Shown here: one piece after another, positions 11,919 to 64,000 of the stretch
Layout: each line of letters starts with the position of its first letter
How positions within the stretch are numbered: position 1 is the stretch's first letter
NCBI GenBank assembly: GCA_963700155.1
Contig: OY969472.1
Span: 598,431-662,430 of the forward strand
DNA from: an uncultured bacterium
GTDB lineage: Bacteria > Patescibacteriota > Dojkabacteria > J137
Reading direction: 5' to 3'
DNA: 64,000 nucleotides
The notes under the pieces: model-generated
What the model saw: only the letters and a program-made list of their open reading frames with translations
The model's database searches: none
What the model was told of the DNA's origin: nothing
Program-made: the position numbers and the translations under genes

Positions 11919-11952
11919 CTTATAATCTCTTCGCAATATTAATAATTTTTGT

Positions 11953-20196: not shown

Positions 20197-20216
20197 TAAT
20201 TTCTACCCATACTTGA

Positions 20217-23200: not shown

Positions 23201-23445
23201 GTTTATCAACAGGATAATTTTGATAAGTAAAAGTATTACTTGAAATTTTAGGTAAGTAACTAGAATTATCAGTTTCAAGAATAGTTTTGTATTGAAAATA
23301 TTGATTATTAGAAACGTTACTTAAGGCGAAAGTTGGTAAATCAGTAGATGTATTATTAGCATCAGAGTAGTAAGTATTAGAGGTTCCATCAGGTCCGATG
23401 AAGGATTCACCTGAACAAGCATTGTCATCACAAGAACGTACCTGA
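20217..23445. repeat. ~3.2-kb near-identical direct repeat, copy 2 (3' two-thirds of paralogue B)
   Basis: See copy 1. Identity extends through the conserved C-terminus 'ALDIVLKGLQDIFSFL'. Confidence 0.8.
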
Positions 23446-25157: not shown

Positions 25158-25169
25158 TATATATTTTAA

Positions 25170-48908: not shown

Positions 48909-49271
48909 GTGAAAAAATTAAAAGGAACAATATTAACTTTACTAGTTGTTTATATAGGTTATCCTGCAATTGTATTTGCACAAAATGTTGGGCAAGTAAC
49001 AATACCAAATCCCTCAGGTTATAATAGTCTTGAAGAATTGATTAATGCAGGATTAAGTTTATTGAGACCACTTTTTATAGTTACTTTTGCGGCAATGATT
49101 ATGTATGGAGCTTGGACTTGGTTAACTTCACAAGGAGATGCAGAAAAGATTGGAAGAGCTCGAAAAATAATCATTGCCGCAGTCATAGGTTTTGCAATTG
49201 CTGTATTGGCACCATCTATAGCCGGAATTGTTGCAAACTTTATTAAATTACAAGGATTTAATGGAATATAA
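48909..49271 (+). CDS. small secreted two-helix hairpin protein, paralogue 1 (VirB2/TrbC-like topology; candidate pilin)
   Basis: Signal peptide 'MKKLKGTILTLLVVYIGYPAIVFA', then 'FAAMIMYGAWTWLTSQGDAEKIGRARKIIIAAVIGFAIAVLAPSIAGIV'. This is a TM, a short charged loop, and a second TM. Confidence 0.45.
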   Translation: MKKLKGTILTLLVVYIGYPAIVFAQNVGQVTIPNPSGYNSLEELINAGLSLLRPLFIVTFAAMIMYGAWTWLTSQGDAEKIGRARKIIIAAVIGFAIAVLAPSIAGIVANFIKLQGFNGI

Positions 49272-50106
49272 ATTTAGTAATAAATTAAAAAGCTTTACAA
49301 TAATAATCTTTATAGGATTCATTTTTGTATTCGGATCGTTTATTTATACCCATAAAGCATATGCTTCAATAATATGTTCAGGTGATACAGGGCCTTGTTC
49401 TGGAATGGCTGTTGGAAGGGATGGATGTTATTCAGGTGGTATTCCTAGTGTTTGTGAACCAAAGGATTTTAATTCTGGACCTACAAATAGTGCTGTTAGT
49501 TGTCAATGCGTACAATCAAATCAAGATGTCTTACAACAAATTGATACATGGAACAATAAATATGCAACTTCGTCAGCATCATCTTGTGAAAATGGTATTC
49601 CTTCAGCTTGTACTGATAGTTATGTACCTGATTTTGCATGTATTAATAAGAAGATTATAGATCCTGGATATGCTTGCTGTGAAAATACATGCATAGATTC
49701 TTCAGGCAATCCAACTTCAGGAGTATCTGATCCAGGGTTAGAGAAATATAGAGAGTTTGGGATATTAGGATTAACAGTTAAAATAACTCCTGAAAGTATA
49801 CCATCACTTATTAATGTATTGTTATCTACTTTCTTGGGAATAATCGCTCTATATGCATTGTTTAGAGGAATTTATGTAGCGGCTATAAAAAGAACTCAAG
49901 CTACAGAAGAAAATCTTGAAGCTGTTAATAAGGAGCTGACAAATATAGTGATAGCATTTGTTATTGCTTTTGCATCAATCTTTATTATTCAGTTAGTATT
50001 TAATTTACTTGGACTAGGGTCTTTAAATAAATTTAATGTAAACTTTACGAATGAAGATACTAGCGGACCTGCTTTAGTTATAAATAGTAATGGCTCTCAA
50101 CAATAA
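49261..50106 (+). CDS. hairpin-protein paralogue 2 with an N-terminal Cys-rich (16 Cys) ectodomain
   Basis: The probable start is the ATG at 49261, overlapping the paralogue-1 stop. The ectodomain is 'CSGDTGPCSGM...CQCVQ...CENGIPSACTD...ACCENTCID'. The C-terminal hairpin is 'LSTFLGIIALYALFRGIYVAAIKRTQATEENLEAVNKELTNIVIAFVIAFASIFII'. Confidence 0.45.
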   Translation: MEYKFSNKLKSFTIIIFIGFIFVFGSFIYTHKAYASIICSGDTGPCSGMAVGRDGCYSGGIPSVCEPKDFNSGPTNSAVSCQCVQSNQDVLQQIDTWNNKYATSSASSCENGIPSACTDSYVPDFACINKKIIDPGYACCENTCIDSSGNPTSGVSDPGLEKYREFGILGLTVKITPESIPSLINVLLSTFLGIIALYALFRGIYVAAIKRTQATEENLEAVNKELTNIVIAFVIAFASIFIIQLVFNLLGLGSLNKFNVNFTNEDTSGPALVINSNGSQQ

Positions 50107-50123
50107 ATTAGTTTATTTATATT

Positions 50124-50663
50124 ATGAAAAAAAATATTTTAAAAATTTCAGGTTTTATTTTTCTTTTTGTGACATTAACCTTAAATTTGATAGTATATGC
50201 TGCTAATAATGATGCTAATTTAAATGTAGGTGATCTTAATCTACAGTCAATAAGAATTCCACTTTTCCTGCCATTTGATCCTAAATTCGGATCCTCTTTA
50301 ACAGTATTTTCATGGATAACTTATATTGGGATAATTGCTACTGGAGCTATAATTGTTTTCTGGATATATTTAATCATTAGAACTGCAGTAAAAGCAATGC
50401 AGAGTCATGGAGAAGCTGATGCATTGGCAGATGTAAGTAAAAGATTTAGATCAATTTTTATAGGAATGTTTATAACATTCCTTTTCCCAATAGTATTAAG
50501 TGTAATAGGTGTTTTATTAGGAGTAGGTACGATATTCGCTTGGCCAAAAATGTTTAGTCGTTGTGATAATCATAGCGGAAGTACAGGTTATGAGTACTAT
50601 TTTCAAGCGTATCTTGAGTTAGGTGGGGATGATGCTGATGTTCGTTGCGGTTATACAACTTAA
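50124..50663 (+). CDS. hairpin-protein paralogue 3
   Basis: Signal peptide, then 'IIATGAIIVFWIYLIIRTAVKAMQSHGEADALADVSKRFRSIFIGMFITFLFPIVLSV', then a Cys-containing tail. Confidence 0.45.
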   Translation: MKKNILKISGFIFLFVTLTLNLIVYAANNDANLNVGDLNLQSIRIPLFLPFDPKFGSSLTVFSWITYIGIIATGAIIVFWIYLIIRTAVKAMQSHGEADALADVSKRFRSIFIGMFITFLFPIVLSVIGVLLGVGTIFAWPKMFSRCDNHSGSTGYEYYFQAYLELGGDDADVRCGYTT

Positions 50664-50694
50664 ATAATAATTAATCCTTAAATATTAATATAAA

Positions 50695-51162
50695 TTGAAA
50701 AAACCTAAGAATTTAAAATCTAACCTAGCTAAAAGTTTACTCTATTTTTCTATAATTGGATTACTATTTCCAGTTATAGCTTACGCAGATGATAATACAG
50801 GAGGATTGTGCGGAATTCTTCCTTGTCAATTAGCATCTCCATGTCTTGGGACAAACTGTGGTGGTGATTCACTTTCGCTTGTTGGAACTTTATTAGAATT
50901 TGCTTTAAGTTTTATATTTGTCGGGATTTTAATTTTTGGAATATGGCTAATCCTTCAAGCTACCTTAAAGATAATTAGAAGTGAGGGGAATGAAGAGCAA
51001 GTTCAATCTGGGTACAAACTAATTAAAGGAGCTTATACTGGAATAGTATTAATATTTGTTGGAATAATTGGATTAGTTGTAGTTTTTGCATTATTTAATG
51101 CAACTGATATTTTTAAAGTAGGGACGGGAAATATACCAGAATTATCAGCACCAACTCAGTGA
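50695..51162 (+). CDS. hairpin-protein paralogue 4
   Basis: Signal peptide, a CGILPCQ...CLGTNCGG Cys knot, then 'FVGILIFGIWLILQATLKIIRSEGNEEQVQSGYKLIKGAYTGIVLIFVGIIGLVVV'. Confidence 0.45.
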   Translation: MKKPKNLKSNLAKSLLYFSIIGLLFPVIAYADDNTGGLCGILPCQLASPCLGTNCGGDSLSLVGTLLEFALSFIFVGILIFGIWLILQATLKIIRSEGNEEQVQSGYKLIKGAYTGIVLIFVGIIGLVVVFALFNATDIFKVGTGNIPELSAPTQ

Positions 51163-51242
51163 TTAAATTATAAAGTAATAACTTGATTTCATCTTTATAT
51201 TGTGTTTTAATGATGAAAATTAATATATGTTAGTTTAAAAAA

Positions 51243-51674
51243 ATGCCAGTATTATTAGCTCAAGCAGGAACAGCTCCATCAGGGAATTTAGTTTGTAAAG
51301 TGTTTCCTTTTCTACAGAATATAAAATTTGATTATATTCAACAACTTTGTGGAACTGGACAAGAAATTACATCTCAAACAGCTGTTCAACAAGGAGTTCT
51401 ATTAGTGCAAACATTAGTCAGTCTTATTTTTGTAGGAATAATAATAATTGCAGTTTATGTAATTATTAAAGCTGCAATCAAGTATATTAGAAGTGAAGGA
51501 AATGATGAAAAGATTCAAGAAGCTCAGAAAGCAATTAAGAGTGTATTTATTGGTTTAGTTGCTTTATTTGTAGGAATAATAGGTTTAGTATTAATACTTG
51601 TAATCTTCAATGCATTAGGTGCAGTAAATAGCGCTACAGTAAATGATACTGGAGATATTGTTCGGCCTACATAA
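51243..51674 (+). CDS. hairpin-protein paralogue 5
   Basis: 'FVGIIIIAVYVIIKAAIKYIRSEGNDEKIQEAQKAIKSVFIGLVALFVGIIGLVLI' is near-identical in pattern to paralogue 4; there is no obvious signal peptide at the listed start. Confidence 0.4.
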   Translation: MPVLLAQAGTAPSGNLVCKVFPFLQNIKFDYIQQLCGTGQEITSQTAVQQGVLLVQTLVSLIFVGIIIIAVYVIIKAAIKYIRSEGNDEKIQEAQKAIKSVFIGLVALFVGIIGLVLILVIFNALGAVNSATVNDTGDIVRPT

Positions 51675-51708
51675 TAAATACTTAAAAGTAGATTTTAAAA
51701 GGTAAGAA

Positions 51709-52488
51709 ATGCAGATGTTCTCAAAAAAGATTTTAATAACATCGCTTCTTACCTTTTTGTTTTTAAATTTCTTTCTTACATTTGTTTCAGCTCAAATTCA
51801 AACGACTCCTTTTTCAGGAAATGATGCTTCCAGCTATCAATGTATTGGGAAAAACGGACAAATTGAGCCTAATGCAAAAGTTCAAAAAGATTCAGTAACT
51901 AATAATTTTGTTTGTTATAACGCAGATGGAAGTATTATAGATAGAGATGGAAATGGCAAACCGGATCAAGCAATATTAAAACCTGTTGCCCTTGAACAAA
52001 TTCAAATTTGGTTTGTAAGAATAATTTATGTTATTTGGGCATTGGTTGGAACTTATTCATTCTTATTATTGGTATATTTAGGCTATCAATATATGCTTAG
52101 AGGAGGGACCTCAGATGAAGAATTAGTTAAACTACGAAAAAGAATAATCTACTATGTAATAGGATTTGCATTGGTATTTTTAGCAATTCCAATTCTTTCA
52201 ACTGTTTTTAGGCTTTTAAATATTAATACTGCAGTAGATTGTTATAATGTTAATATCCCAACTTTTCAGTTTTTCTTTGCAACACTTTGTACAGATCCAA
52301 ATGAAATTATTGTAGGTGAGCCATGTAACGTAGAAAACTGGCAAAGCGGAGCTGCTGTAGGGTTAGCATGTCCTACTAATGGTGAGGCGCATGGGTGTCC
52401 TACAGATTCATTACCTTTGATTTGTTATTACTGTAGCGGGAACATATGGAATAAAGGGACAATTTTCAACTCGCAATGTAGGCAATAA
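51709..52488 (+). CDS. hairpin-protein paralogue 6 with a C-terminal Cys-rich domain
   Basis: Signal peptide 'MQMFSKKILITSLLTFLFLNFFLTFVSA'. The hairpin is 'VIWALVGTYSFLLLVYLGYQYMLRGGTSDEELVKLRKRIIYYVIGFALVFLAIPIL'. The Cys-rich tail is 'CYNVN...CTDPN...CNVEN...CPTNGEAHGCPTDSLPLICYYCSG'. Confidence 0.45.
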   Translation: MQMFSKKILITSLLTFLFLNFFLTFVSAQIQTTPFSGNDASSYQCIGKNGQIEPNAKVQKDSVTNNFVCYNADGSIIDRDGNGKPDQAILKPVALEQIQIWFVRIIYVIWALVGTYSFLLLVYLGYQYMLRGGTSDEELVKLRKRIIYYVIGFALVFLAIPILSTVFRLLNINTAVDCYNVNIPTFQFFFATLCTDPNEIIVGEPCNVENWQSGAAVGLACPTNGEAHGCPTDSLPLICYYCSGNIWNKGTIFNSQCRQ

Positions 52489-52566: not shown

Positions 52567-54141
52567 TTGCTTAACTTTAAAACTATGGCTTTAAAAATTT
52601 TATCAATCGAAATAAAAGATTCTAGGGTAAACTTTCAGAAGAAATATGAATTTGCCGAAGAATTATTTGTAAGACAAAGTGAAGCGGTTTTAATTCTTCA
52701 AAATATTTTGAACTTTATTTCAATACCGAATAGAAATCTGATCGAAGCTACAACCGAAGTTCAGATCGATTCTGATTTAATTAAGATTTATAAATCATAT
52801 TCTACAAACTCTGTTAAATATTTTATTAACAATAAGGAAGAAAATATAGACATATATAAGTGGCTGTCAGAGAAACTGAAATTGACAATAGATCCACCAT
52901 CATGGGGAAGCAGGTTTATTGATTTAAAAAATGAGAATGTTCAAAATATTGATGATTTGAATAAGCTGTTCAGAAATAAAGATGCGATTTTGCAGCCTTC
53001 TTCTGAACTCCTTCAGAAGAAGGCTGCTTTGACAGCTCAATTTGAGAAGTTAAGATTGGAATCGATTAAGGGATTAACTCAAGAACAAGTTCAAAAAAGC
53101 GATAGGTTGCGTGAAGTTAAATTACGAATAGATAGTATTCAAAAAGAAGTTGATGCTTATCAATCAGAAAAAACTGGGAAAGAAGATTTAGATTCAAATA
53201 TTAGAAATAAAGAGCAGGAACTAAGTACGATAAATGAAAAATTACAATCAGTAGAATCATTAAAGATCTCCAAGCAAAAAGCTGTTCAAGAGCTTCAAAA
53301 ATACAATTCTGTTTCAAATGTACAAAATTCTTCTGATTTAAAAAACGAAAAGATACAAAAACTTGAACAATCGCTGTACGGAGCCTTTACTAAACCAGTC
53401 CACAAAAGCATATCTGATGATGAGGCAGATGAATCTAAATTAAATTTGAAAAAAGTGCTCCTTATCATTCAAATCCCATTTACCTTAACTGTATTAATTA
53501 TTTTTTATCTATTAGTAAAACAAGAGTTAATTCTTTTAATAGGTTTTCTTTTGATAGTTTTAGAATTTGCTTATACTATTTTTGAATTCCAGAAAAAGCC
53601 TAAAGAGGACTTAAATCTTTTACAGCCGGAATCTCCACAACAGAATCAACAAGATGATATATCAGTTAACCTTAACCAAGATCAGATATTAATAAAACAA
53701 GCTTGGAGAGGAGCATATGAACAAGAATTGAACAGAATTGATCAATTAATTTCATCTAATCTAGATGGTAAAAGTTATGAGGATATGCAAAGTGAAAAAT
53801 CTAAGATAGATAATGAAATCGCACAGTTAAAAAAACAACAGGAAGATTTAGAAAAAAATAGTTTGGATTCTGAGAGTTACTATAAAAAGAGAAGAGAGTT
53901 AGATATTTTAAAAATTGAAAAAGAGAATCTTGAATTTGGGTCAAATATACAAATACCAAATGAAGATCAGCTAAATAATTTGAGTCTTCAGCTAGATCAA
54001 ATAGATGAAGATATTGATTCGATTGAAGATATAAGAAGCTCTTTGCCTTTTATAATAATTAATATAAAAGATTCAATAAAAGAAATGCTAAAGAATTTAT
54101 CTTTAAGAAGGCAGATTATTTTAATTAGTAGCAGGAAATGA
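52567..54141 (+). CDS. coiled-coil protein with a central TM hairpin (524 aa)
   Basis: Long heptad-rich Q/E/K regions on both sides of 'VLLIIQIPFTLTVLIIFYLLVKQELILLIGFLLIVLEFAYTIF'. The N-terminus 'MALKILSIEIKDSRVNF' resembles an SMC/SbcC head but has no P-loop. Confidence 0.4.
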   Translation: MLNFKTMALKILSIEIKDSRVNFQKKYEFAEELFVRQSEAVLILQNILNFISIPNRNLIEATTEVQIDSDLIKIYKSYSTNSVKYFINNKEENIDIYKWLSEKLKLTIDPPSWGSRFIDLKNENVQNIDDLNKLFRNKDAILQPSSELLQKKAALTAQFEKLRLESIKGLTQEQVQKSDRLREVKLRIDSIQKEVDAYQSEKTGKEDLDSNIRNKEQELSTINEKLQSVESLKISKQKAVQELQKYNSVSNVQNSSDLKNEKIQKLEQSLYGAFTKPVHKSISDDEADESKLNLKKVLLIIQIPFTLTVLIIFYLLVKQELILLIGFLLIVLEFAYTIFEFQKKPKEDLNLLQPESPQQNQQDDISVNLNQDQILIKQAWRGAYEQELNRIDQLISSNLDGKSYEDMQSEKSKIDNEIAQLKKQQEDLEKNSLDSESYYKKRRELDILKIEKENLEFGSNIQIPNEDQLNNLSLQLDQIDEDIDSIEDIRSSLPFIIINIKDSIKEMLKNLSLRRQIILISSRK

Positions 54142-55913
54142 AAGAAAGATTAAGAGTTGCGGCTATAATAACTTTAATAATCTTTACACTAACTAGCAGT
54201 GTAGTTTTTGCCAGATCTTCTTCAGATATCCAAAAAGATATAGATAAACAACAGCAGGAGCTTCAACAAACAGAAGATGATTTGAATGCTGCCAAAAATA
54301 ACCTTGATTATTATAATGGTGCTTTATCACAGGCGAGTGGAGGAGTTCCGCAGCTTGAGGCTCAAATAAAACAGATAGAGGCACAGATTGAATATAATCA
54401 AAAACAGTTGGATTTATTAAAGCAGAGCAAAGATTTAAAAGAGCTTGAGAAGGCACAAAAGGAAGCTGAAAGACAGGAATCCTTAAAAAGTAATTATATG
54501 ACTTGGAGATCAAGGTCAATTGGATTTGTGCAGTTTTTGAATGATGAATATGATTTCAAAAAGAATGAACAGTACAGCGATTTGATTTTAAATCGTCAGC
54601 AAAATAATATTATGGGATTGAACTCAGAGCTTACTGTAATCAATGCTGATATAGACCAGTATGCAACAAAAAAGGCGGACTTAGAGAAGTCAAATACAGA
54701 TTTGCAAAAACAAAAACAAGATCTAGAAAATCAAATCGCGTACTATAACTCTCAAATTAACTATAACAGCAGCAGCATTAGTAATTTAGAAAATAATATT
54801 AACAGTATTCAAAAAACTATCTCGCTTTTATCTGGTGAACAAAAAGATGCTTATCTTAAAGAGGCTGAACTTGCCCAACAGGCAGGTAATGGGGGCCAAA
54901 GTATTGGAGGGTGCGTAACTTCAGATGATGGAAATAATGATAATAATATTCAATTTTGCGGAGTTGGAAATGATTTTGTTCAAGGACATGGTGTGGGTAT
55001 GAGCCAGTGGGGAGCAAATGGGATGGCCTTAAAAGGCTTTAGTGCTAATGAGATAACGCAGTTTTATTATACTGGAGTTCAAGTTGCTACTGGATATCAG
55101 AATAGAACTGTTAATGTGGAAGGGTATGGAACAATAAATGTTGAAGATTATGTTGCAGGACAAGGAGAGGTGCCGGGAAGAGCATGCGGAACGCAACAGC
55201 AAGCAAATCAAAATCCAAGCAAGTATGTTGTAGATAATCCGAACTCTTCTTGGGATTGTTGGCCAGAAGAGGCAATTAAAGCTCAGGCAATTGCATTTAG
55301 AACTTATGGACTTTATTATGCTGGCTTCTTGCATGCAGATGCAAGAAGCCAGGTCTACAACGGTTCCCATTATTCACAATGGGCTGCTGATGAGACTAAA
55401 GGTAAAGTCTTAACTTCTGGTGGTCAAATAATTGAAGCTTTGTATTCTGCAGATAATAATCAAGGCTTCGGAACTGCTAATAATGAAACTATATTTCAAG
55501 ATTTTGCTGGAAATGGTACAGCTATATCATATCTTAGATCAGTTAATGATAATGCTATGGCTACTTATACTAGTTACACCAATTGGGGGTATAGAAGTAA
55601 TACTTATACAATGAATGATATTTATAATATGATGAATTGGACCATTTCAAATGATGGAGGAGGCTTTGCCAGTTTTTTGCAAGGTATAAAAAATCAACTT
55701 GGGGCAAAGCCTACAAAGATTTCATTTATAAGAGATCCTTCACTTAGAGTAGCAAAGGTAAAGCTTCAAACTCAGAGTGGTAACTCAGCAATAATAGGTG
55801 CGTGGTGGTTTACGTATATGTACAATGTTTATAATAGCAGTCATAATGTGAAGACTCCTGAAGGTAATAAGGACTGGCTTTGGAGTCAGACATTCTTCGT
55901 GCATGTAAAGTAG
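54138..55913 (+). CDS. secreted coiled-coil protein with a C-terminal SpoIID/LytB-type peptidoglycan-hydrolase domain
   Basis: Signal/TM 'VAAIITLIIFTLTSSVVFA', ~230 aa of coiled coil, then 'FCGVGNDFVQGHGVGMSQWGANGMALKGFSANEI...QAIAFRTYGLYY' (SpoIID hallmark HGVGMSQ-GA). Overlaps the upstream gene by 4 nt. Confidence 0.6.
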   Translation: MKERLRVAAIITLIIFTLTSSVVFARSSSDIQKDIDKQQQELQQTEDDLNAAKNNLDYYNGALSQASGGVPQLEAQIKQIEAQIEYNQKQLDLLKQSKDLKELEKAQKEAERQESLKSNYMTWRSRSIGFVQFLNDEYDFKKNEQYSDLILNRQQNNIMGLNSELTVINADIDQYATKKADLEKSNTDLQKQKQDLENQIAYYNSQINYNSSSISNLENNINSIQKTISLLSGEQKDAYLKEAELAQQAGNGGQSIGGCVTSDDGNNDNNIQFCGVGNDFVQGHGVGMSQWGANGMALKGFSANEITQFYYTGVQVATGYQNRTVNVEGYGTINVEDYVAGQGEVPGRACGTQQQANQNPSKYVVDNPNSSWDCWPEEAIKAQAIAFRTYGLYYAGFLHADARSQVYNGSHYSQWAADETKGKVLTSGGQIIEALYSADNNQGFGTANNETIFQDFAGNGTAISYLRSVNDNAMATYTSYTNWGYRSNTYTMNDIYNMMNWTISNDGGGFASFLQGIKNQLGAKPTKISFIRDPSLRVAKVKLQTQSGNSAIIGAWWFTYMYNVYNSSHNVKTPEGNKDWLWSQTFFVHVK

Positions 55914-55971
55914 AAGGAATATTATTTTACTTCCCAAATACCCAGTAGAGTGGAGTTTCTTTAAATAGAGT

Positions 55972-56000
55972 CTAGAATCAACAATTCTAGTATTTAATTT
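55972..56000 (+). terminator. candidate rho-independent terminator after the SpoIID-domain gene
   Basis: CTAGAAT-CAACA-ATTCTAG followed by TATTTAATTT. Confidence 0.35.
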
Positions 56001-56461
56001 CCCTGCAATATTTAAAATTCCTATATAAGGTCCTCTCAGAACATTGTTAGAGTTTTAAAATATGTTCTTCGAGCAAGGTAGTTATTTAATAAGCTTAAAA
56101 ACTTGTTTAAGGGTTAGCTAGAGATATTTATTACAGTGTATTTATATATACTATTTACCTTATGAGGTCTCCCTTTTATTAGATTCTTGGCGTAATGAAT
56201 ATCATATACAAGACTAATAATTAACGTTTTGAATAGATATTCTTTAGAATACTGTATTTTCTTAATCAAAGTATCCACAATCTACGATCAAAGTTACATA
56301 GATGTAATTCTATTTAACAATTTATGTCAACTTATGGAAACTTTAGTATAATTAATAATAGTACAAACGCCAATTATCAATGACAGTTTTTAAGTGTGAA
56401 ACATTTACAAAAGTAAATTTAGCTTATAAATGCTAAAATAGGATAAATTTAATCAATTAAG

Positions 56462-57151
56462 ATGAATAATCAAGAAAGTGGTGTAAAAACTCCCATGAAT
56501 CTTTCAAATAAACCTCCTAGGCCATTTAACAGAGGTTTAGCTCAAGTAGTTGACGAAGAGTTAGAAAGAGTAGTTCCTGAAAAGGTTTCAAAATGGTTTG
56601 GAAGTCTTTCTTATAGACCTAAGGCTACTTTCTTTTCTAATCAGAATCCAGAAGAGAAAGTCTACTTATTATTAAGAAGACATTGGATAAAAAACCTCGG
56701 ATGGATAATAAGTAATACTTTCTACGCTTTTGTACCGATAATTATTCTTGTTATATCAGATGCCTTAAGAATTTCTCTTGATTTTATAAGCTTTAAAGTC
56801 TATTTCATTATAATATTGGCATATTATTCAGTTATTCTTACTAATGTACTTAGAAACTTCTATGACTGGTACTTTGATATTTATATAGTTACTAATGAGA
56901 GAGTTTTAGAATATTCATTTAGTCCTTTTGTATCATATAGTATTTTAGAAGCAGAATTAGAAAGCATTCAGGATGTAAAAGAGAGTGCAAATGGAGTAGT
57001 TGCTGATATTTTCAGCTACGGAGATTTACGGATAACAACTGCCTCAAGGCTAGGAGAGCTCTTTTTTGATTCAATTCCAAGTTCGACAGAAGTTCGTAAT
57101 ATTTTAATGGATCTTGTAGAAATTATTGACGAATATAAACATGAACTTTGA
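56462..57151 (+). CDS. membrane protein with bacterial PH (bPH_2/YdbT-like) domain
   Basis: 'YLLLRRHWIKNLGWIISNTFYAFVPIIILVIS' TM pair, followed by 'YFDIYIVTNERVLEYSF...GDLRITTAS', typical of DUF304/bPH_2. Confidence 0.45.
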   Translation: MNNQESGVKTPMNLSNKPPRPFNRGLAQVVDEELERVVPEKVSKWFGSLSYRPKATFFSNQNPEEKVYLLLRRHWIKNLGWIISNTFYAFVPIIILVISDALRISLDFISFKVYFIIILAYYSVILTNVLRNFYDWYFDIYIVTNERVLEYSFSPFVSYSILEAELESIQDVKESANGVVADIFSYGDLRITTASRLGELFFDSIPSSTEVRNILMDLVEIIDEYKHEL

Positions 57152-57362
57152 TATAAATATAAATAACAACTTAATACAATTTGCAAAAATAGTAGCTTTA
57201 TTCTTTGCTATGTTCCATCTTTTGGTTGGTTTCGTACTTTATAGAAGAGTAGCCAGAATAAATAAAATTTTAACTACTTCTAGATCCTGGCTGATTACTT
57301 CAATGAATATAACCTATATCGTCATTCTGATTCTTCTAATCATTTTGATTATTGTTGCCTAA
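57126..57362 (+). CDS. small two-TM membrane protein (78 aa; VirB3-like size and topology)
   Basis: Hydrophobicity only: 'IVALFFAMFHLLVGFVLY' and 'ITYIVILILLIILIIVA'. Confidence 0.3.
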   Translation: MTNINMNFDININNNLIQFAKIVALFFAMFHLLVGFVLYRRVARINKILTTSRSWLITSMNITYIVILILLIILIIVA

Positions 57363-57455
57363 AGGGATATTATTAATTAAATTTAGGGTTTAATATATTA
57401 ACTTCTAATGCAATTTTGATATACTGAACTTGAATTTAATCTAACTGGATTTTTT

Positions 57456-59852
57456 ATGAATATAAAAGCCGAATACCTTGTAGGTAAACAAAAGAATAAT
57501 GAATGGGCAGGAGTTTATGGTTATAGGCCTGAAAGTGATACTGATAAAAGTAAAGCAGAAATGTTTGCTGTTACTAGAATACAAACAGATGCTGAAGTTG
57601 ATAATCTTGAAAGAGTTGCAAAAATGCTTCTTGATGAACTTCAACAGAATTTTTACTCCGATGAAGAGTCTAAAGATGAAATCTTAAGAATTGAACATGC
57701 TTTCAACAAAATGAAAGCGAAATTAGAAGTAATACTTTCAAGGGAAGAGGAAATCCAGGAGAAAGGTCTTGATATTGAGATTGCAGCAGCATTTTTGCTA
57801 GATGATGTACTTTATGTTGGGGTTGTCGGCGAAAGTAAGGTTTTTATATTTAGAAATGATAAATTTGTAGATATAACAAGAGCATTAGTTGATGCTAATA
57901 TGTCTGGATTTATTAAAACTGGTAGTTTAAAGGTCCAGGATGACGACATATTTTGTTTAGCAACCTCCAAAGTAGCTGCTGATTCTGAGGCTTTGCAGAA
58001 TGGAGTGTCCAAATTGAATACAGAATTAATGGCAGAGCTCAAAGATATTGAAGGATCTGCAATATTATTATTTGCTGATGAGTCACTACAATGGAATAAG
58101 ACTGTTGAATTCCAAGATGAAAAAATGACAGAAGAAGCTTCAATTGATCAAACAGTTGAAGAAGAAAAAGACTTCTCCTCTCAAGATTTTGCCCCAGAAT
58201 TTTCGGAAGATAATCAAGAAGTACAACAATTAAGTCCTGTTGTAGGTGCTGTTCCAAATACTCCAATAGGAGATAATAATATTGTTGAAAATGAAAATAA
58301 GTTCTCAGAATTCAATGAGGAAGAAAATTCTGAAGATGAAGGTGAATATATTGAGACTGAAGAAAATGCAGATTTAAGTGGAAGATCACAAATGGCTAAT
58401 AAGCTTACAAATCAAGTTGGTAATATAAAAACTAAATTATTCTCAATTTTCAGTAATGTAAAAACTAAAGGATCTAATTTTGCCGATAATTCAGACACTG
58501 GAAGTAAGAAGACTTATATAAAAATAATAAGCGATATTATTACCTGGATAAAAAATGGAATAACATCACTAATAAATATGTTTAAGCGCGAAATCTTAGG
58601 GCAGGGAATTGATCGAACAAACAGAGTACTTTATCAGAATAAGTTACAAAGAAACAGGAAGATTTTGTTTATAGTATTAGTTATTGCGGTAATATTTATT
58701 TATATTGGATTAAAAGATGCAGAATCAAGACGGATTGAAGCTGAGAGAATTGATAATGCGAGAACAGAGCTTACTCAGTTACAAAATGATTTCGCGCCTT
58801 TGAACTCCCAGGTTGAAACAGTAAAAACACAAGCTCAAGCTAAAAAAGATATTCTAATTTCAAGTTTAGATAATATTATTAATGAAGCAGAATCACAAAA
58901 GAGTACTGGTTTGTTGACGAATGATCTAAATGATTTAATTACTCAAGCAAATCAAGCAAAAGACAATGTCCAGTTAATAAAAGAAGTAAATTCTGAAAAT
59001 ATACAGGTAATTTCGGATATTGGGAAAGTTCATGCAGATTCAGAACCTACTGGTATTGTATTTACGAATGGTAATATATTCGTAAGTGATAATAAAAGAG
59101 GTGTAATATATAAAATAACTCCAAATGTTAACTCTGATCCAACAGAATTTGTTAAAAACTTAACAAGTCCTAATGTACTTACAAAAAATTCAGCTGGAGA
59201 TATAATTTTCTATGACAGTGATTCTTCAACTGCAATAGCAAAAGTAAATCCTAAATCTGGTGAAGTTTATCGATTTCCTTATTTATCTACCGGGGTTATA
59301 GGCACAATTACTAAGGCTGCTGTATATAGTGGGAATGATGCTTTATATGAAATTCATCAGGATCACCAGCAGATATTTAAAAGGGATAAAGATGGACAAA
59401 ACTATTTTGGAGGTGGGGCGATTTATTCAACAGTTAATCCACCTAACTGGAAAACAGATCCAGAATTTTCAAAAGCAATTGATATAGCAGCACCTTACGA
59501 GATATATGTATTAATCCAAGGTGGAGGGTTAAGAAGATATCTTGCTGGCGGAGATAATTCGTTAACTTATGATACTTTCTCGAATTTCGCGCAAAGTGAT
59601 TATAATGCTATAAATGATGCAACAGCAATCGATGTCGATGGAAAGTATTTAGCAGTAGCAGATCCAAAGAACAAAAGAGTATTAGTGTTCGAAATACAGG
59701 ATAATGATCAGAAGAATTTGCGATTTACTAAGCAATTCGTTTATAGAGGAGATGATAATACTTTTAGTAACATTACAGAATTGGCTGTAAGTGAGGCAAA
59801 TAATGAAGTATTTGTTCTCGATGGAACTAAAGTAGTTAAATTAAATTTATAG
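57456..59852 (+). CDS. large bitopic membrane protein: cytoplasmic alpha/beta N-domain, acidic linker, TM, extracytoplasmic coiled coil and NHL/beta-propeller-like C-domain (798 aa)
   Basis: TM 'KILFIVLVIAVIFIYIGL' at ~residue 400. The C-terminus has repeated 'SD...GVIYKIT', 'AVADPKNKRVLVFE' and 'NEVFVLDGTKVVKL' blades. Confidence 0.4.
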   Translation: MNIKAEYLVGKQKNNEWAGVYGYRPESDTDKSKAEMFAVTRIQTDAEVDNLERVAKMLLDELQQNFYSDEESKDEILRIEHAFNKMKAKLEVILSREEEIQEKGLDIEIAAAFLLDDVLYVGVVGESKVFIFRNDKFVDITRALVDANMSGFIKTGSLKVQDDDIFCLATSKVAADSEALQNGVSKLNTELMAELKDIEGSAILLFADESLQWNKTVEFQDEKMTEEASIDQTVEEEKDFSSQDFAPEFSEDNQEVQQLSPVVGAVPNTPIGDNNIVENENKFSEFNEEENSEDEGEYIETEENADLSGRSQMANKLTNQVGNIKTKLFSIFSNVKTKGSNFADNSDTGSKKTYIKIISDIITWIKNGITSLINMFKREILGQGIDRTNRVLYQNKLQRNRKILFIVLVIAVIFIYIGLKDAESRRIEAERIDNARTELTQLQNDFAPLNSQVETVKTQAQAKKDILISSLDNIINEAESQKSTGLLTNDLNDLITQANQAKDNVQLIKEVNSENIQVISDIGKVHADSEPTGIVFTNGNIFVSDNKRGVIYKITPNVNSDPTEFVKNLTSPNVLTKNSAGDIIFYDSDSSTAIAKVNPKSGEVYRFPYLSTGVIGTITKAAVYSGNDALYEIHQDHQQIFKRDKDGQNYFGGGAIYSTVNPPNWKTDPEFSKAIDIAAPYEIYVLIQGGGLRRYLAGGDNSLTYDTFSNFAQSDYNAINDATAIDVDGKYLAVADPKNKRVLVFEIQDNDQKNLRFTKQFVYRGDDNTFSNITELAVSEANNEVFVLDGTKVVKLNL

Positions 59853-59873
59853 GAATATGCTATTATAAGCTTT

Positions 59874-60329
59874 ATGAAAAGCTTAAGCAGTAACAAAAAA
59901 GCACACTTTGATTATGAAGTTTTAGATAAAATTGAAGCAGGGATTTCCTTATTTGGATGGGAAGTTAAATCAATAAAAGCTGGTTCAATGTCTTTATCGT
60001 CTTCATTTGTAATAATCAGAGATGGTGAGGTTTATATAATCGATAGCTTTGTCCCTTCATGGAAATCTGCACCAAAAGAGAGTAAAGAAGTTGAGAATCG
60101 AAAGAGGAAATTATTAATGACAAAATCAGAGATACATAGCCTTGAAGGAAAATTAAAACAAACTGGATTTTCTGCTGTTCCTTTAGAGATTTATGAAAAT
60201 GAAAAAGGGATAATAAAAGTTACTGTTGCTGTTGTAAGGGGTAAAAAAAGATTTGATAAGAGAAGGAAGTTAAAAGAGAAAGATTTAAAAAGAAGAGTGG
60301 AGTCTGAAAGAAAACAATATAATTTTTAA
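59874..60329 (+). CDS. smpB: SsrA-binding protein SmpB
   Basis: 'FDYEVLDKIEAGISLFGWEVKSIKAG' and basic C-terminal tail; 151 aa. Confidence 0.85.
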   Translation: MKSLSSNKKAHFDYEVLDKIEAGISLFGWEVKSIKAGSMSLSSSFVIIRDGEVYIIDSFVPSWKSAPKESKEVENRKRKLLMTKSEIHSLEGKLKQTGFSAVPLEIYENEKGIIKVTVAVVRGKKRFDKRRKLKEKDLKRRVESERKQYNF

Positions 60330-60331
60330 TT

Positions 60332-60934
60332 TTGTCCGATTTACAGACATTAAATATGGATAGTAATAATAATCAAAAAGTAGATCCTCAATTAGTTCAG
60401 ATTTTAGAACTTTTAGGTAAATTTGGTTTTAAATTTTTTGGATATAGTGAGAATAAAGAACCTTTAGTTATTGCAGAGAATGGGCAGGTGGTAACTGTCT
60501 CTGTAGCATATAACTTTGTACAGACACAAATGGCAAAAGCATCTGCGGCAGCTTCAATGGGGAATATTGAAACGATGCCACAAATGCCGCAGATGCCTCA
60601 AATGCCAACATCGCCAGAAGGTAAAGTTGAAAGCAAATTAGAGCAAGGTATGGAAAAGCAGGATAAGACAAACTTTGGCCTAGAAAATATACCTAAAATT
60701 GGGAATCAGCAACAGACTAATCCTCAAAATCAAGGGCAACAGCAAGTTCCTCAACAAGTCTTTGGAGATGGTTTCAAAATTAGCTCTTTTAATCCATCTA
60801 ACATTGATCAGACAATAGAATTTGTTAAGAAAAATAGTCAAGCAAGTCAAACTTCCCCAAAAAAGTATTTAGCAATTCAGTTAGAAAAATTCTTGGCGGA
60901 AATACGCATGTCAAGGCAAAATAATAAAAGCTAA
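60332..60934 (+). CDS. hypothetical Gln/Pro-rich protein containing an (MPQ)4 repeat
   Basis: 'TMPQMPQMPQMPTSPEG' is encoded by a 9-bp tandem repeat at ~60575..60610. Confidence 0.35.
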   Translation: MSDLQTLNMDSNNNQKVDPQLVQILELLGKFGFKFFGYSENKEPLVIAENGQVVTVSVAYNFVQTQMAKASAAASMGNIETMPQMPQMPQMPTSPEGKVESKLEQGMEKQDKTNFGLENIPKIGNQQQTNPQNQGQQQVPQQVFGDGFKISSFNPSNIDQTIEFVKKNSQASQTSPKKYLAIQLEKFLAEIRMSRQNNKS

Positions 60935-61017
60935 AGTTAATCTTGAATTACTAAACTTTTCTTTCAACAGCGGTTATAATGAAGGGAATAAATTTAATTT
61001 TGGGACTGTAAATATTT

Positions 61018-63462
61018 ATGCTAGGTTCTTCCAATATTTTTGATACGTCAATTTTAATAACAATTGTAATTGGACTGTTAGTTCTTCTTGTTATTGCGTT
61101 CGTAATTATTATAGGTGTGAATAGATTCTATAAAAGTATAAAAGAGAGCATCTTAAAAGAAAAAAATTTAGGATTGGTTTTCTATGAAGTCAGGTTGCCG
61201 AATGTTAATGAAGTTGAAATCAAAGCAGCAGAACAAATGTTTACAGGTTTAATTGGTATCGGAGAAAAACTTACAGGCTTAAAAAAGTATTTCGGTGCAA
61301 AGACTTTTGTAAGTTTTGAAGTTGTAGCTTTTAAAGAGAGTATAAAGTTTTTTGTAGTTTGTCCAAAGCGAATAGCCTCGGTAGTTGATAGGCAAATAAA
61401 TGGAACATATCCTACTGCAGAGATAATAAAAGTAAAGGAGTACAATTTATTCCCTGAAGATGGATACGTAGCTTCTACAGCTTTACAGCTTGAAAAAGAG
61501 TACAGATATCCAATCCAAACTTATGAAGAGCTCCCAGTTGATACTATTGCGACTTTAACTGATGCATTCAGTAAATTACAAGAAGGAGAAGCAGCTGCAT
61601 TCCAATTGATTATTTCACCCGCTGGCTCAGAATGGAGAAATCAATCAAGAGAGTATGTAAAGAAAATGCGTGAAGCTCCAACTGATGAAGAAGGCAAAAA
61701 GAAAGTCAATGTTGATGATGAGGCATTAAATTTAATTGATCAAAAGATTCAAAAATCCGGATTCTTTGCTAACGCAAGGTTAATTGTTGTTTCAAATGAC
61801 AAATACTCAGCTGATTCACACTTAGCAAATATTTTAAGTTCTTTTGATCCTTTTACAAAGGAAGGGAGTAATCGCTTTAAGAAGGTTAAATCGGATAAAT
61901 TAAAGAACTTTGCTACAGATTTTGTTTATAGAATTCCAAGAGAAGGTATGATTTTAAATACCGCAGAACTTGCGACTTTGTTTCACTTTCCTAATAGAAA
62001 TATAAAGACACCTTATATTCAATGGCTTTTATCTAAAAGGGAACCAGCACCTGATTTTGTTACGAGCAGATATGATAAGGATTATATGTATGTTGGACGA
62101 AATACATATAGAGGGCAGACTAGAGAAGTTTTCTTAAAACCAGAAGATAGATTAAGGCATTTTTATGTCATTGGACAAACTGGTACTGGTAAATCTGTGT
62201 TTATGTCAGGAATGATGATAAGAGACATGAAATTAGGTCATGGATGCGGATATATTGATCCACACGGAACAGACGTTGAAAAGATCATGCAGCAAATTCC
62301 TCCAGAAAGAGTAGAGGATGTTGTTATTTTTGATCCTGCTGATTTGGATAGACCAGTGGGTTTAAATATGCTTGAATTTAATTCAGAGGCTCAAAGAACC
62401 TTGGTAATTAATGAGATGCTTAATATATTTGATACTCTTTATAATCTTAAAGTTACTGGTGGACCAATGTTTGAGCAGTATTTTAGATATGCAATCATGC
62501 TTTTAACAGAAGATCCTGAGTCGGGTTCAACTTTAATGGAAGTGCCAAAAGTATTCGCTGATGAAGGATATAGAGCTTATAAGCTTTCGAAATGTAAAGA
62601 CCAGGAAGTCATAGATTTCTGGAAAAAGCAAGCAGAGCAAGCTGGTGGAGATGTTTCTTTAAAGAATGTTACACCATATGTAACTTCGAAAATGGCAAGC
62701 TTTTTATCAAATGCATACGTAAGACCAATTATTGCACAGCAACAATCTACTATAAAATTCAAAGAGATAATGGATCAACAAAAAATCCTTTTAGTAAAGC
62801 TTTCCAAAGGCAAGATTGGAGATTTTAATGCATCTCTTTTGGGAATGGTAATGATAGGTAAGCTTTTAATTGCAGCTCTTGAAAGAGAAGGGACAGCTGA
62901 AAAAGATAGAAAGCCTTTCTATCTTTACATTGATGAGTTTCAAAACTTCTTGACTGATGGAATTATGATTATCCTTTCTGAAGCTAGAAAATATCGATTA
63001 GCATTAACAATAGGACATCAGTTCTTAGGACAGTTAACAAGAGAAGGGGGAAATACTAAGATTAAAGATGCAGTTTTTGGAAATGTAGCTAATAAAGCAA
63101 TTTTCAGAGTTGGAGAAGAAGATTCTCCATTCTTAAGAAAAGTAATAGGTGAAGAGCTTCTTGAAGAAAAAGATTTACAGCAAGTTGAAAACTTTAACTT
63201 TTATCTAAAGATGCTTGTTGATGGAAGACCGACACCTGCATTCTCGGTTAATACTTTCTATAAAAGTATGTCACCATATGATATGTTAGGAGATCCAAAT
63301 GTAGAAATAGCTGAAGTTGCAAGACAGATTTCAAGATTGAAGTATGGAAAAGATAGAAATATTGTTGAGAATGAGATTAAGCTTAGAGGAACCTTTATAA
63401 AAGAGAAGGAAGATGATGGTAAAGGTAAAAATTCATTATTTGGTGGCTTTGGAGGATTCTAG
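61018..63462 (+). CDS. membrane-anchored FtsK/HerA-superfamily ATPase of the type IV secretion family (VirD4/TraG coupling-protein-like; VirB4/TraE-like not excluded)
   Basis: N-terminal TM 'ILITIVIGLLVLLVIAFVIIIGV'. Walker A is 'FYVIGQTGTGKSV', followed by 'GYIDPHGTDVE...VVIFDPADLDRPVGLNMLEF' (cf. T4CP DPKGD...NPL). Walker B is 'FYLYIDEFQNF'. The family-typical 'ARKYRLALTIGHQ' R...Q motif is present. 814 aa. Confidence 0.55.
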   Translation: MLGSSNIFDTSILITIVIGLLVLLVIAFVIIIGVNRFYKSIKESILKEKNLGLVFYEVRLPNVNEVEIKAAEQMFTGLIGIGEKLTGLKKYFGAKTFVSFEVVAFKESIKFFVVCPKRIASVVDRQINGTYPTAEIIKVKEYNLFPEDGYVASTALQLEKEYRYPIQTYEELPVDTIATLTDAFSKLQEGEAAAFQLIISPAGSEWRNQSREYVKKMREAPTDEEGKKKVNVDDEALNLIDQKIQKSGFFANARLIVVSNDKYSADSHLANILSSFDPFTKEGSNRFKKVKSDKLKNFATDFVYRIPREGMILNTAELATLFHFPNRNIKTPYIQWLLSKREPAPDFVTSRYDKDYMYVGRNTYRGQTREVFLKPEDRLRHFYVIGQTGTGKSVFMSGMMIRDMKLGHGCGYIDPHGTDVEKIMQQIPPERVEDVVIFDPADLDRPVGLNMLEFNSEAQRTLVINEMLNIFDTLYNLKVTGGPMFEQYFRYAIMLLTEDPESGSTLMEVPKVFADEGYRAYKLSKCKDQEVIDFWKKQAEQAGGDVSLKNVTPYVTSKMASFLSNAYVRPIIAQQQSTIKFKEIMDQQKILLVKLSKGKIGDFNASLLGMVMIGKLLIAALEREGTAEKDRKPFYLYIDEFQNFLTDGIMIILSEARKYRLALTIGHQFLGQLTREGGNTKIKDAVFGNVANKAIFRVGEEDSPFLRKVIGEELLEEKDLQQVENFNFYLKMLVDGRPTPAFSVNTFYKSMSPYDMLGDPNVEIAEVARQISRLKYGKDRNIVENEIKLRGTFIKEKEDDGKGKNSLFGGFGGF

Positions 63463-63478
63463 TGTATAATCCTCCGTA

Positions 63479-64000
63479 TGAATGTTTTTGATGAATCATT
63501 TCTAAAAGATCCCTTGCAGTTAAGACCTGATGAGACTTTAATTTTTCCTCATGCATTTGGAGAGCATAGATTAAGGATTAATGAGAATCTTGTGCTAGAT
63601 TCTTCACAAGATGAAATAGATATCCATAAGGTAGATAAAGTATTAATAAGCGATCTTTCTAACTTTGCTAAAGCTGCACAAGACTTCTTAACACCAAATA
63701 GAATTGAAGATTATCTAATTTATTGCAAGAATCCTAATATTATAAATTATCTAAAACTTATTAGAGATAATGGATATTTGGATTCAATTGATTTGTCTTG
63801 TTATGGAATAGAGTATGTATACCATTCTGCATGCAACTTATATGTAGATTCTGATGGAGCATTATCTGATAAGTTAGAAACTTTAAAGTTAAATAGAGTA
63901 TATGGATCACAAACAAGGGTTAGTTATTTTAGTGTTGACCCAGCGATGGCCCTGAGTCATGGCATTGGAAATTATAATTATCTTACCCAAAGACGATCGA
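63479..64000 (+). CDS. hypothetical protein, 5' part (continues beyond window end)
   Basis: Open frame from the ATG at 63479 to the window end with no stop. Confidence 0.3.

Follow-up and report, generated by a model that had tools for sequence, protein, structure and literature searches.

A probable satellite locus of the Patescibacteria type IV secretion system in Ca. Dojkabacteria, with a candidate accessory envelope module

Organisation of the locus

[quoted passage not shown]

48909..49271, + strand: VirB2-like T4SS pilin 1, with a signal peptide and two hydrophobic helices (hydropathy); PF18895 T4SS_pilin, 31.7 bits against a cut-off of 26.6
49228..52488, + strand: five further pilin-like paralogues (49228-50106, 50124-50663, 50695-51162, 51243-51674 and 51709-52488)
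52567..54141, + strand: 524-aa coiled-coil protein with a central transmembrane (TM) hairpin at residues 294-342 (hydropathy)
54138..55913, + strand: 591-aa membrane-anchored coiled-coil protein with a SpoIID/LytB-type (lytic transglycosylase family) domain (TIGR02669, PF08486)
55914..56461, no strand: AT-rich intergenic gap of 548 nt (sequence)
56462..57151, + strand: 229-aa protein with two TMs (residues 79-131) and a bPH-like C-terminal domain (YdbS/YdbT-like architecture)
57126..57362, + strand: 78-aa two-TM protein, DUF5657-like (PF18901, 22.1 bits against a cut-off of 25)
57456..59852, + strand: 798-aa bitopic protein (PP2C-fold domain, linker, TM, coiled coil, NHL propeller)
59874..60329, + strand: smpB (SsrA-binding protein), a housekeeping passenger (PF01668, 156.7 bits; TIGR00086, 159.5 bits)
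60332..60934, + strand: 200-aa Q/P-rich protein, Dojkabacteria clade only
61018..63462, + strand: 814-aa membrane-anchored T4CP-like ATPase (Walker A GQTGTGKS, Walker B YIDEF)

All ORFs from 52567 onwards lie where the initial annotation had placed them. The transmembrane segments that it claimed were all found by hydropathy, and the motifs that it quoted (HGVGMSQWGA, GQTGTGKS, DPHGT, FDP..VGLNML, IDEFQNF and RKYRLALTIGHQ) are all present in the translations.

The pilin array and envelope proteins

The pilin-like array directly upstream of the coiled-coil gene is VirB2-like, as judged by PF18895. Each of the five further paralogues has a C-terminal two-helix pilin core, and all have a common topology by hydropathy. 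Two of the six paralogues score above the PF18895 cut-off of 26.6 bits and so qualify as VirB2-type pilins: pilin 1 (31.7 bits) and the product of 51709-52488 (26.9 bits). That of 51243-51674 scores 22.5 bits, and the remaining three are also below threshold. Iterated profiles match the same pilin arrays in relatives. The pilin 1 gene lies outside the coordinates of the finding that was followed up, yet is part of the same locus.

The 524-aa coiled-coil protein matches no Pfam family and is confined to close Dojkabacteria relatives, the sole homologue found being a 314-aa protein of locus L082. Its ORF overlaps that of the 591-aa protein by 4 nt (ATGA). The latter has an N-terminal membrane anchor (hydropathy) and passes the curated cut-offs of both SpoIID/LytB models (TIGR02669, 101.7 bits against 83.3; PF08486, 32.9 against 23), so that the peptidoglycan hydrolase named by the initial annotation is indeed present, as a predicted enzyme. 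Alignment with solved SpoIID in the PDB revealed that the domain is circularly permuted, query residues 254-316 corresponding to SpoIID 263-326 and residues 377-454 to SpoIID 84-186. The protein is conserved in 48 CPR-type metagenome loci.

The 548-nt gap that follows probably divides two transcription units. It has no Rfam match, and a promoter and terminator scan performed no better on it than on shuffled sequence; tRNA-Asn and tmRNA were the only Rfam matches, neither of them in the region under study.

Beyond the gap, the bPH-like gene comes after the SpoIID gene in 23 of 31 metagenome loci. The architecture of the 229-aa protein, including the TM hairpin, is consistent with the bPH label, but the Pfam matches are below threshold (bPH_3, 14.6 bits against 23, E 0.048; bPH_2, 13.5 bits against 22, E 0.091). 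The 78-aa protein has an L082 orthologue with a likewise weak match to PF18901. It had been called VirB3-like; no likeness to VirB3 was detectable with Pfam, and hhalign of the DUF5657 family gave probabilities of 0.1% for TcpE (a test of low power, with two TcpE sequences only) and 1% for pilins. Within the limits of these weak tests (profile scan and hhalign), the VirB3 identity is rejected.

The 798-aa protein is bitopic with an extracellular beta-propeller, as originally proposed. In order along the chain come a PP2C-fold domain in the cytoplasm (residues 1-210), a disordered acidic linker, a single TM (397-424, by hydropathy), a coiled-coil stretch and, outside the cell, an NHL beta-propeller (508-798). 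Inspection by eye did not reveal the canonical metal-binding motifs DGxGG and SDGL among the conserved residues of the PP2C-fold domain, which is therefore probably a catalytically dead pseudo-phosphatase. No gene for a partner kinase was seen adjoining it in the locus. An exhaustive search of representative sequences returned 646 clusters of homologues, where earlier homologue searches had given seven sequences only.

The coiled-coil SpoIID, bPH-like, DUF5657-like and PP2C-like/NHL genes form a conserved and so far undescribed envelope block, no description of which was found in PMC10633639, PMC12102498 or the other literature searched. Its members do not match any described T4SS family (Pfam, NCBIfam, hhalign). 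This counts against a role as T4SS accessory and favours an alternative, in which the block and smpB form a housekeeping module for wall growth, division or envelope signalling, the adjacency of pilin and T4CP genes results from inherited order or shared regulation, and the ATPase has been exapted, for example for nucleic-acid uptake or DNA translocation. Wall remodelling and wall-sensing signalling are the usual settings of SpoIID and PP2C/NHL (PknD-like) architectures, and exaptation of the T4CP was raised as a possibility in a 2025 survey (PMC12102498). The embedding of smpB, noted initially and unambiguous in its assignment, points the same way. It is conserved: smpB occupies the same position in Dojkabacteria loci covering that position. 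Among the 21 metagenome loci that extend 6 kb or more past SpoIID on the downstream side, 15 contain it, usually directly after the 798-aa homologue. With smpB inside the block, adjacency here need not mean common function. The 200-aa Q/P-rich protein matches no family, and homologues were found in L002, L082 and L083 only.

The ATPase

Behind an N-terminal TM (residues 4-41), the 814-aa protein has a DUF8128 domain (approximately 50-345), then an NTPase of VirD4/TrwB type that carries an all-alpha insertion (approximately 350-790). It is thus a RecA-like NTPase anchored in the membrane, in which both Walker motifs (A and B) and an all-alpha domain are present, and its sequence is nearer to T4CPs than to VirB4, FtsK or HerA; Pfam T4CP models gave borderline matches only. 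Its sequence places the ATPase among the type IV coupling proteins (T4CPs), in the VirD4 class. Of the T4CP/VirB4 hallmarks first ascribed to it, those of a T4CP are borne out; a VirB4 identity is rejected, as is a housekeeping FtsK/HerA reading, in view of the greater nearness to T4CPs. No PDB entry among the top matches corresponded to the DUF8128 domain.

More than 3,483 homologues were found, in more than 599 genome loci, with 38-42% identity across CPR classes. PHROGs contained a single family of unknown function for the ATPase, and a phage origin was rejected because a scan of viral contigs gave only 11 loci, most matching the NTPase domain alone. On Bacillus plasmids, full-length homologues are also encoded, by the gene that opens the conjugation operon (T4CP, relaxase, TcpC, TcpE, VirB4). 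The CPR coupling-protein family therefore has its whole architecture, including DUF8128, in common with relaxase-adjoining coupling proteins of Bacillus conjugative-type plasmids, which ties it to a DNA-transfer ancestry. Association of the T4CP with a relaxase or T4SS is seen for these plasmid homologues; in the window and among CPR relatives the only such association is adjacency to VirB2-like pilins, in Dojkabacteria-type loci.

Absent components and gene neighbourhood

The region had been described as a putative conjugation-like apparatus. To our knowledge, a VirB4-family ATPase is the hallmark of every T4SS. We examined 49 window ORFs (nearly all those of at least 100 aa, and the 78-aa one), of which a Pfam scan covered 46, and searches with ATPase-domain and VirB4 queries covered all 49. 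There was no match to VirB4, AAA_10, CagE_TrbE_VirB or P-loop_TraG in these ORFs, no Pfam or NCBIfam match in the window to VirB3, VirB6 or VirB8-like channel components, and no member of a relaxase family among the scanned ORFs. The region is therefore not a complete or conjugation-like apparatus, the hallmark VirB4 being missing together with VirB3, VirB6 and relaxase. The accompanying statement that the window holds no relaxase, VirB6 or second related ATPase was upheld, and extends to VirB4 across the 49 ORFs.

Sequence past the window end was judged from the close relatives L082 and L083. Neither has VirB4 within 10 kb downstream of the ATPase, and the genes found there encode surface, XerC/D-like, FtsH and PolA proteins. 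The suggestion that the system might continue beyond the ATPase fails in these relatives, as no further T4SS components follow. Two observations had been named beforehand as telling against a T4SS; one was made, namely this lack of components downstream of the ATPase, and the other was not, since the ATPase falls inside the T4SS families. With a validated CPR VirB4 query, VirB4 was found within 10 kb in only 2 of approximately 160 related loci, which counts against a T4SS-accessory role. So do the mevalonate/UppS housekeeping genes on the far side of the pilin arrays in metagenome loci. Together with GroEL, ClpB and ClpP on the upstream flank in the window, and FtsH, PolA and XerC/D-like genes downstream in relatives, they are consistent with the housekeeping alternative.

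An integrated conjugative or mobilisable element would account for the T4CP homologue, the T4SS-type pilins and the tyrosine recombinase gene that follows the ATPase in relatives. The recombinase, however, keeps its position in two distant relatives, which is the behaviour expected of XerC/D. The GC content of the region (0.30-0.35) is that of the rest of the window, housekeeping genes are embedded in it, and it has no flanking tRNA, the only tRNA gene of the window lying at 11952. In addition, the ATPase family is phylum-wide, and Dojkabacteria whose ATPases are 60-73% identical retain the gene order of the locus. Along with the failure to find relaxase or VirB4 in the scanned window ORFs, these results effectively refute an integrative element, which had been raised initially as a point to check by GC, and leave it extremely improbable.

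The gene set and order recur across many genomes and metagenomes, and are thus no chance arrangement. In 23 of 29 metagenome loci the envelope block adjoins VirB2-like pilin arrays, always divergently transcribed, whereas block and array are co-directional in Dojkabacteria. Of 82 genome loci, 14 have the block, or its 798-aa member alone, next to a T4CP, and three gene orders occur among them; T4CP lies next to the block in Dojkabacteria and some Levybacteria. No T4CP was found within 10 kb of the block in any of the 48 CPR-type metagenome loci, which counts against a T4SS-accessory role. Against the housekeeping alternative, pilin adjacency has been kept through an inversion and the block stands next to T4CP in other lineages as well. 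Since both adjacencies persist despite rearrangements, two independent T4SS-family partners associate with the same block, and such repeated re-association is hard to explain by inherited order alone. We regard a housekeeping module as possible, if on the unlikely side.

Proposed function

Patescibacteria have a chromosomal T4SS with VirB2 arrays, their T4CP genes seldom lie close to virB4 (148 of 5,713 do) and relaxases are almost always missing (PMC12102498). The T4SS was essential for epibiotic growth in the single species examined, and its function has been called completely unknown (PMC11665869; PMC12857230). We take the locus described here for a satellite of this known T4SS, with a new candidate accessory module, and not for a novel secretion system or a mobile element. 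On balance, the region reads as a vertically inherited chromosomal locus of Ca. Dojkabacteria (Patescibacteria/CPR) with peripheral components of the MPF_FATA-derived T4SS of the phylum and not the whole system. It is made up of a six-gene VirB2-like pilin array, the envelope block, smpB as a passenger and a membrane-anchored VirD4-class ATPase. In favour of this reading are the spread of the ATPase family across CPR classes, its T4CP identity, the pilins above the Pfam cut-off and the adjacency of the block to pilin arrays and to T4CP. As part of this best explanation, the VirB4/VirB3/VirB6 core would, rather more probably than otherwise, be placed elsewhere in the genome. In S. epibionticum, where the T4SS is essential, the T4CP-like SEML1_0293 is non-essential and SEML1_0142 essential; either is at most a putative orthologue of the window ATPase, and SEML1_0293 counts against the accessory role.

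A further alternative is that pilins, envelope block and T4CP make up a self-sufficient machine of T4SS descent, for a pilus or for translocation, that works without VirB4. We consider this improbable. We know of no characterised T4SS pilus that does not require VirB4, T4CP is missing from most loci with pilins and block, and T4CPs with the N-domain of the window ATPase are encoded on Bacillus plasmids beside a VirB4. Moreover, both Dojkabacteria assemblies in the available part of a published table are scored VirB4-positive (PMC12102498).

Guilt by association suggests how a satellite of the T4SS might work. The SpoIID-like enzyme would make a local opening in the wall at the site of pilus or channel passage, and the pilins would be polymerised by a VirB4 machine encoded elsewhere. 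Outside, the NHL-propeller protein may touch the wall or host surface, while its PP2C-like domain may signal to, or dock, cytoplasmic partners. A hexameric T4CP could use ATP to recruit substrate, protein or nucleic acid, and feed it to the channel. Classical conjugation would not be the function, because no relaxase was found among the scanned window ORFs. More speculatively, and in our opinion unlikely, a dedicated and so far unrecognised envelope module would serve the VirB2-like arrays of Patescibacteria, linked directly in some lineages to a coupling ATPase; together they would constitute the part of the CPR T4SS that crosses the wall and touches the host, or even a pilus or translocation device that works without VirB4. 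The four-gene block, travelling with pilin arrays and sometimes with a coupling protein, provides testable candidates for wall crossing and host sensing.

Comparison with known systems

Among the closest known relatives of the ATPase is the Firmicutes Tcp/ICEBs1-type MPF_FATA coupling protein, represented by WP_213380696.1 of B. subtilis plasmid NRS6107_2 (25% identity over 741 columns, E 2e-39). The alignment spans the DUF8128-like N-domain and the NTPase, and the Walker motifs are identical. The WP_213380696.1 gene is on a plasmid and is followed by relaxase, TcpC, TcpE and a VirB4-like AAA_10 ATPase, whereas the window gene is chromosomal and lacks these neighbours. Compared with the Gram-negative T4CPs TrwB, VirD4 and DotL, the window ATPase has one TM rather than two, and an extra cytoplasmic domain of approximately 300 aa (DUF8128) between TM and NTPase.

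The 591-aa protein has the motifs HGVGMSQ(W/Y)GA and E-A-(L/I)-K-A-Q-A-(I/V)-A in common with SpoIID/LytB lytic transglycosylases (SpoIID of sporulation engulfment; C. difficile 5I1T, B. anthracis 4RWR). It differs from the solved structures in its permuted segment order, in a coiled-coil stalk of approximately 250 aa before the domain and in an extra C-terminal region after it. Unlike sporulation SpoIID, it belongs to a non-sporulating CPR bacterium and its gene is linked to pilin arrays. The 798-aa protein joins in one chain the PP2C and NHL parts known from receptor-type PP2C and NHL-sensor proteins (M. tuberculosis PstP and PknD; the T6SS regulator PppA).

The CPR chromosomal MPF_FATA-related T4SS (Wang et al. 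2023, PMC10633639; Quinonero-Coronel et al. 2025, PMC12102498) is found in the same phylum and has VirB2-like arrays whose pilins diverge in sequence, with six pilins here and six in S. epibionticum. Both are chromosomal and vertically inherited, with T4CP away from virB4 and no relaxase. The window locus differs in having no VirB4, TrsD, PrgI or VirB6, and in that its pilins are linked to the coiled-coil SpoIID, bPH, DUF5657 and PP2C-NHL block and, in Dojkabacteria, also to a T4CP.

Gene content of the locus

The initial annotation described a putative type IV secretion (T4SS) or conjugation-like apparatus at 52567-64000. Its eight ORFs were correctly placed, all on the + strand; every motif that it quoted was found in the translations, and its membrane topology was borne out by a hydropathy scan. 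The 524-aa ORF shares its last 4 nt (54138-54141) with the start of the 591-aa ORF.

Features of the locus, with membrane topology from the hydropathy scan
48909-52488: array of six VirB2-like pilin genes
524-aa protein: TM hairpin, residues 294-342
54138-55913, + strand: SpoIID protein (591 aa), N-terminal signal anchor
229-aa protein (bPH-like): two TMs
78-aa protein (DUF5657-like): two TMs
798-aa protein (P798): one TM, residues 397-424
59874-60329: smpB
61018-63462, + strand: ATPase (814 aa), N-terminal TM, residues 4-41

The pilin array is preceded by an FtsA/PilM-like gene, groES/groEL, clpP and a ClpB-type AAA+ gene. Two of the six pilins passed PF18895, and all have the two-helix core. 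The closest named relatives of the ATPase are from Candidatus Dojkabacteria. GC content is about 30% throughout the window and does not deviate across 48-64 kb, so that the check for an integrative element by GC gave no indication of one; a reading of the locus as an ICE is effectively refuted.

The 49 window ORFs examined comprise almost every one of 100 aa or more, and the 78-aa ORF; Pfam searches covered 46 of them, and ATPase-domain and VirB4 queries were run on all 49. As annotated initially, no relaxase, VirB6 or second related ATPase was found among these 49, nor was VirB4. It had also been suggested that the system might continue beyond the ATPase. In two Dojkabacteria loci that keep this gene order, and whose ATPases are 73% and 60-62% identical to that of the window, no T4SS genes lie downstream: a large surface protein follows the ATPase in one, a XerC/D-like recombinase and FtsH are present in both, and a methyltransferase, malic enzyme and PolA lie further 3′ in the more distant relative. 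Because of these 3′ genes, the T4SS-related gene set is predicted, from the two relatives, to end at the ATPase.

A partial ORF 3′ of the ATPase (63478-64000, 174 aa inside the window) had no Pfam match; by an annotation-level comparison, the gene at this position in the two relatives differs in length and domain content. Elsewhere in the window, a run of four genes (15214-29591, - strand) encodes large proteins, secreted or on the surface (1660, 507, 978 and 1473 aa), with LamG, fn3 and purple-acid-phosphatase-N domains; beyond them, at about 30 kb, the coding strand switches and positive GC skew sets in.

Class of the ATPase

Pfam gave borderline matches of the ATPase to coupling protein (T4CP) models and DUF87/HerA (TrwB_AAD_bind, 21.8 bits against a cut-off of 20.5; TraG-D_C; DUF87). 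NCBIfam models for TraD, VirD4-like proteins and TraG matched weakly, and VirB4 at the P-loop only. In the PDB, a profile of 14 family members matched DotL (2.4e-5), a HerA-type helicase (0.003) and TrwB (0.006), and VirB4 was not among the matches. The decisive evidence for the predicted class came from tblastn against plasmids, which detected full-length homologues, including the N-terminal domain (DUF8128), on Bacillus and haloarchaeal plasmids. Two plasmids, NRS6107_2 of B. subtilis and one of 27.5 kb, have the homologue (25% identity in a 741-column alignment, E 2e-39) at the head of a conjugation operon; behind it lie genes for a replication-relaxation protein (relaxase), TcpC, TcpE and a VirB4-like ATPase matching AAA_10. 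Because of the profile matches and these full-length homologues in conjugation operons, the ATPase is assigned by homology to the MPF_FATA-type T4CP lineage.

The initial description of T4CP/VirB4 hallmarks therefore holds for T4CP and not for VirB4, which was rejected on the P-loop-only match and the PDB search. The other candidate, a housekeeping FtsK/HerA paralogue, was rejected on the full-length plasmid T4CP homologues. On a Haladaptatus plasmid (L086, 9785-13607) the counterpart of the N-terminal domain seems to be encoded on its own, by a 350-aa gene between VirB4-like and T4CP-like genes, which suggests a fusion or fission in the family.

The family is very widespread in Patescibacteria (CPR): over 3,483 homologues were counted and over 599 genome loci confirmed, with identities of 38-42% between classes. 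This breadth matches the published 5,713 T4CP homologues in 2,918 of 3,035 CPR genomes, 148 of them near virB4 (Quinonero-Coronel et al., PMC12102498). The ATPase also matched phrog_5156 (260 bits), to which PHROG assigns no function. Only 11 IMG/VR contigs had relatives, most matching in the NTPase domain only.

Conservation of the block

An ATPase-anchored survey with iterated profiles yielded 82 related genome loci in addition to that of the window. The SpoIID, bPH, DUF5657 and P798 genes, or P798 alone, adjoin the ATPase in 14 of the 82, and in 8 of the 40 that have 6 kb or more of sequence on each side. The 14 come from four clades of the ATPase tree, with three gene orders among them:

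Order A (Dojkabacteria-type): pilins, SpoIID, bPH, DUF5657, P798, smpB, ATPase
Order C (Levybacteria): ATPase, SpoIID, bPH, DUF5657, P798
Order D: ATPase, then convergent P798

A metagenome survey anchored on the coiled-coil SpoIID protein yielded 80 loci, 48 of them CPR-type. Where upstream sequence sufficed, a VirB2-like pilin array lay within 3 kb in 23 of 29 loci, divergent every time. bPH was next to SpoIID in 23 of 31 loci, P798 was present in 15 of 22, and smpB in 15 of the 21 with enough downstream sequence. None of the 48 CPR-type loci had the ATPase within 10 kb. On the far side of the pilin arrays were mevalonate-pathway, UppS, NUDIX and ECF-sigma genes, and no T4SS core genes. When a validated CPR VirB4 (P-loop_TraG 103 bits, AAA_10, CagE_TrbE_VirB) was used as query, VirB4 was found within 10 kb at just 2 of about 160 loci.

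Taken together, the ATPase-anchored, SpoIID-anchored and VirB4 surveys indicate that the robust unit is the pilin array with the SpoIID, bPH, DUF5657 and P798 genes, usually with smpB attached. In some lineages, including that of the window, the T4CP accompanies this unit.

In metagenome loci, two conserved genes come after the pilin arrays in the same orientation and encode proteins of about 750-970 and 510-580 aa (L101:399-6024, L108:1-4004, L116:1-3589, L120:1426-5237, L127:2766-8298). In L101 the larger protein carries a lysozyme-like SLT_3 domain. Neither protein had a homologue that could be detected in the window. Further CPR lineages (L031, L032 and 13 metagenome loci) repeatedly have a ComFC-like gene (double zinc ribbon and phosphoribosyltransferase; 32907-33602 in the window) close to the SpoIID/bPH/P798/smpB block.

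The individual proteins

The SpoIID/LytB call was upheld above curated cut-offs (TIGR02669, 101.7 bits against 83.3; PF08486, 32.9 against 23). From its N-terminus it comprises an anchor, some 250 aa of coiled coil and a SpoIID domain. Compared with solved SpoIID structures the domain is circularly permuted, the HGVGMSQxGA segment preceding the canonically N-terminal segments: residues 254-316 correspond to C. difficile SpoIID 263-326, and 377-454 to 84-186. All CPR homologues examined keep this permutation.

For the 229-aa protein, the label bPH has a sub-threshold match only (E 0.05-0.09). The 78-aa protein, called VirB3-like initially, is instead DUF5657-like by a sub-threshold score (22.1 bits, cut-off 25); its family showed no profile similarity to TcpE (VirB3-like; two sequences compared) or pilins. 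The family of P798 (PP2C-like with an NHL propeller) amounts to 145 clusters at 50% identity (E<=1e-30), most of them full-length. Because canonical PP2C metal motifs were not visible by eye among its conserved residues, P798 may be a pseudo-phosphatase. The 524-aa and 200-aa proteins were found in close Dojkabacteria relatives only.

The smpB call is unambiguous. The gene usually lies directly 3′ of P798, and the Dojkabacteria loci covering the position also have it; loci with this arrangement include the window, L092, L097, L100-L102, L116, L131, L137, L140, L159 and others. A connection of smpB with an envelope machine is not obvious. A tmRNA gene (34201-34655) lies 25 kb upstream.

Relation to known type IV secretion systems

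We lean slightly towards the block working with the CPR T4SS, because two different T4SS-family genes, those for VirB2-like pilins and for the T4CP, have each become linked to it anew in various lineages and orientations; this double re-association is the best available evidence. The main rival takes the block for a housekeeping module of the wall or of signalling, with an adjacency that is not mechanistic and a T4CP that has been exapted. Both smpB inside the block and the housekeeping genes on the flanks speak for this rival, which we consider rather improbable. A machine that works independently of VirB4 is possible but quite unlikely. If the block does cooperate with the T4SS, the SpoIID-like enzyme would open the wall locally, the pilus would be assembled by a VirB4 machine encoded elsewhere, P798 might serve in outside-in sensing or anchoring, and the T4CP would recruit substrates. 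The observations of the initial annotation are confirmed, and its interpretation is partly supported.

No paper in the literature searched pairs SpoIID with Patescibacteria or mentions DUF5657 or DUF8128, and SpoIID and PP2C are not listed in the S. epibionticum supplementary tables. Two T4CP-like genes of S. epibionticum differ in their Tn-seq class: SEML1_0142, which has a TraM recognition domain, is listed as essential, and SEML1_0293 as non-essential (PMC10633639 Table S1); a 2025 survey gives the t4cp homologue as not essential (PMC12102498). The CPR T4SS, VirB2 arrays, scattered T4CP genes and the lack of a relaxase are already published (PMC10633639, PMC12102498, PMC12857230). The locus is a satellite of this known CPR T4SS, a variant that carries a candidate accessory module.
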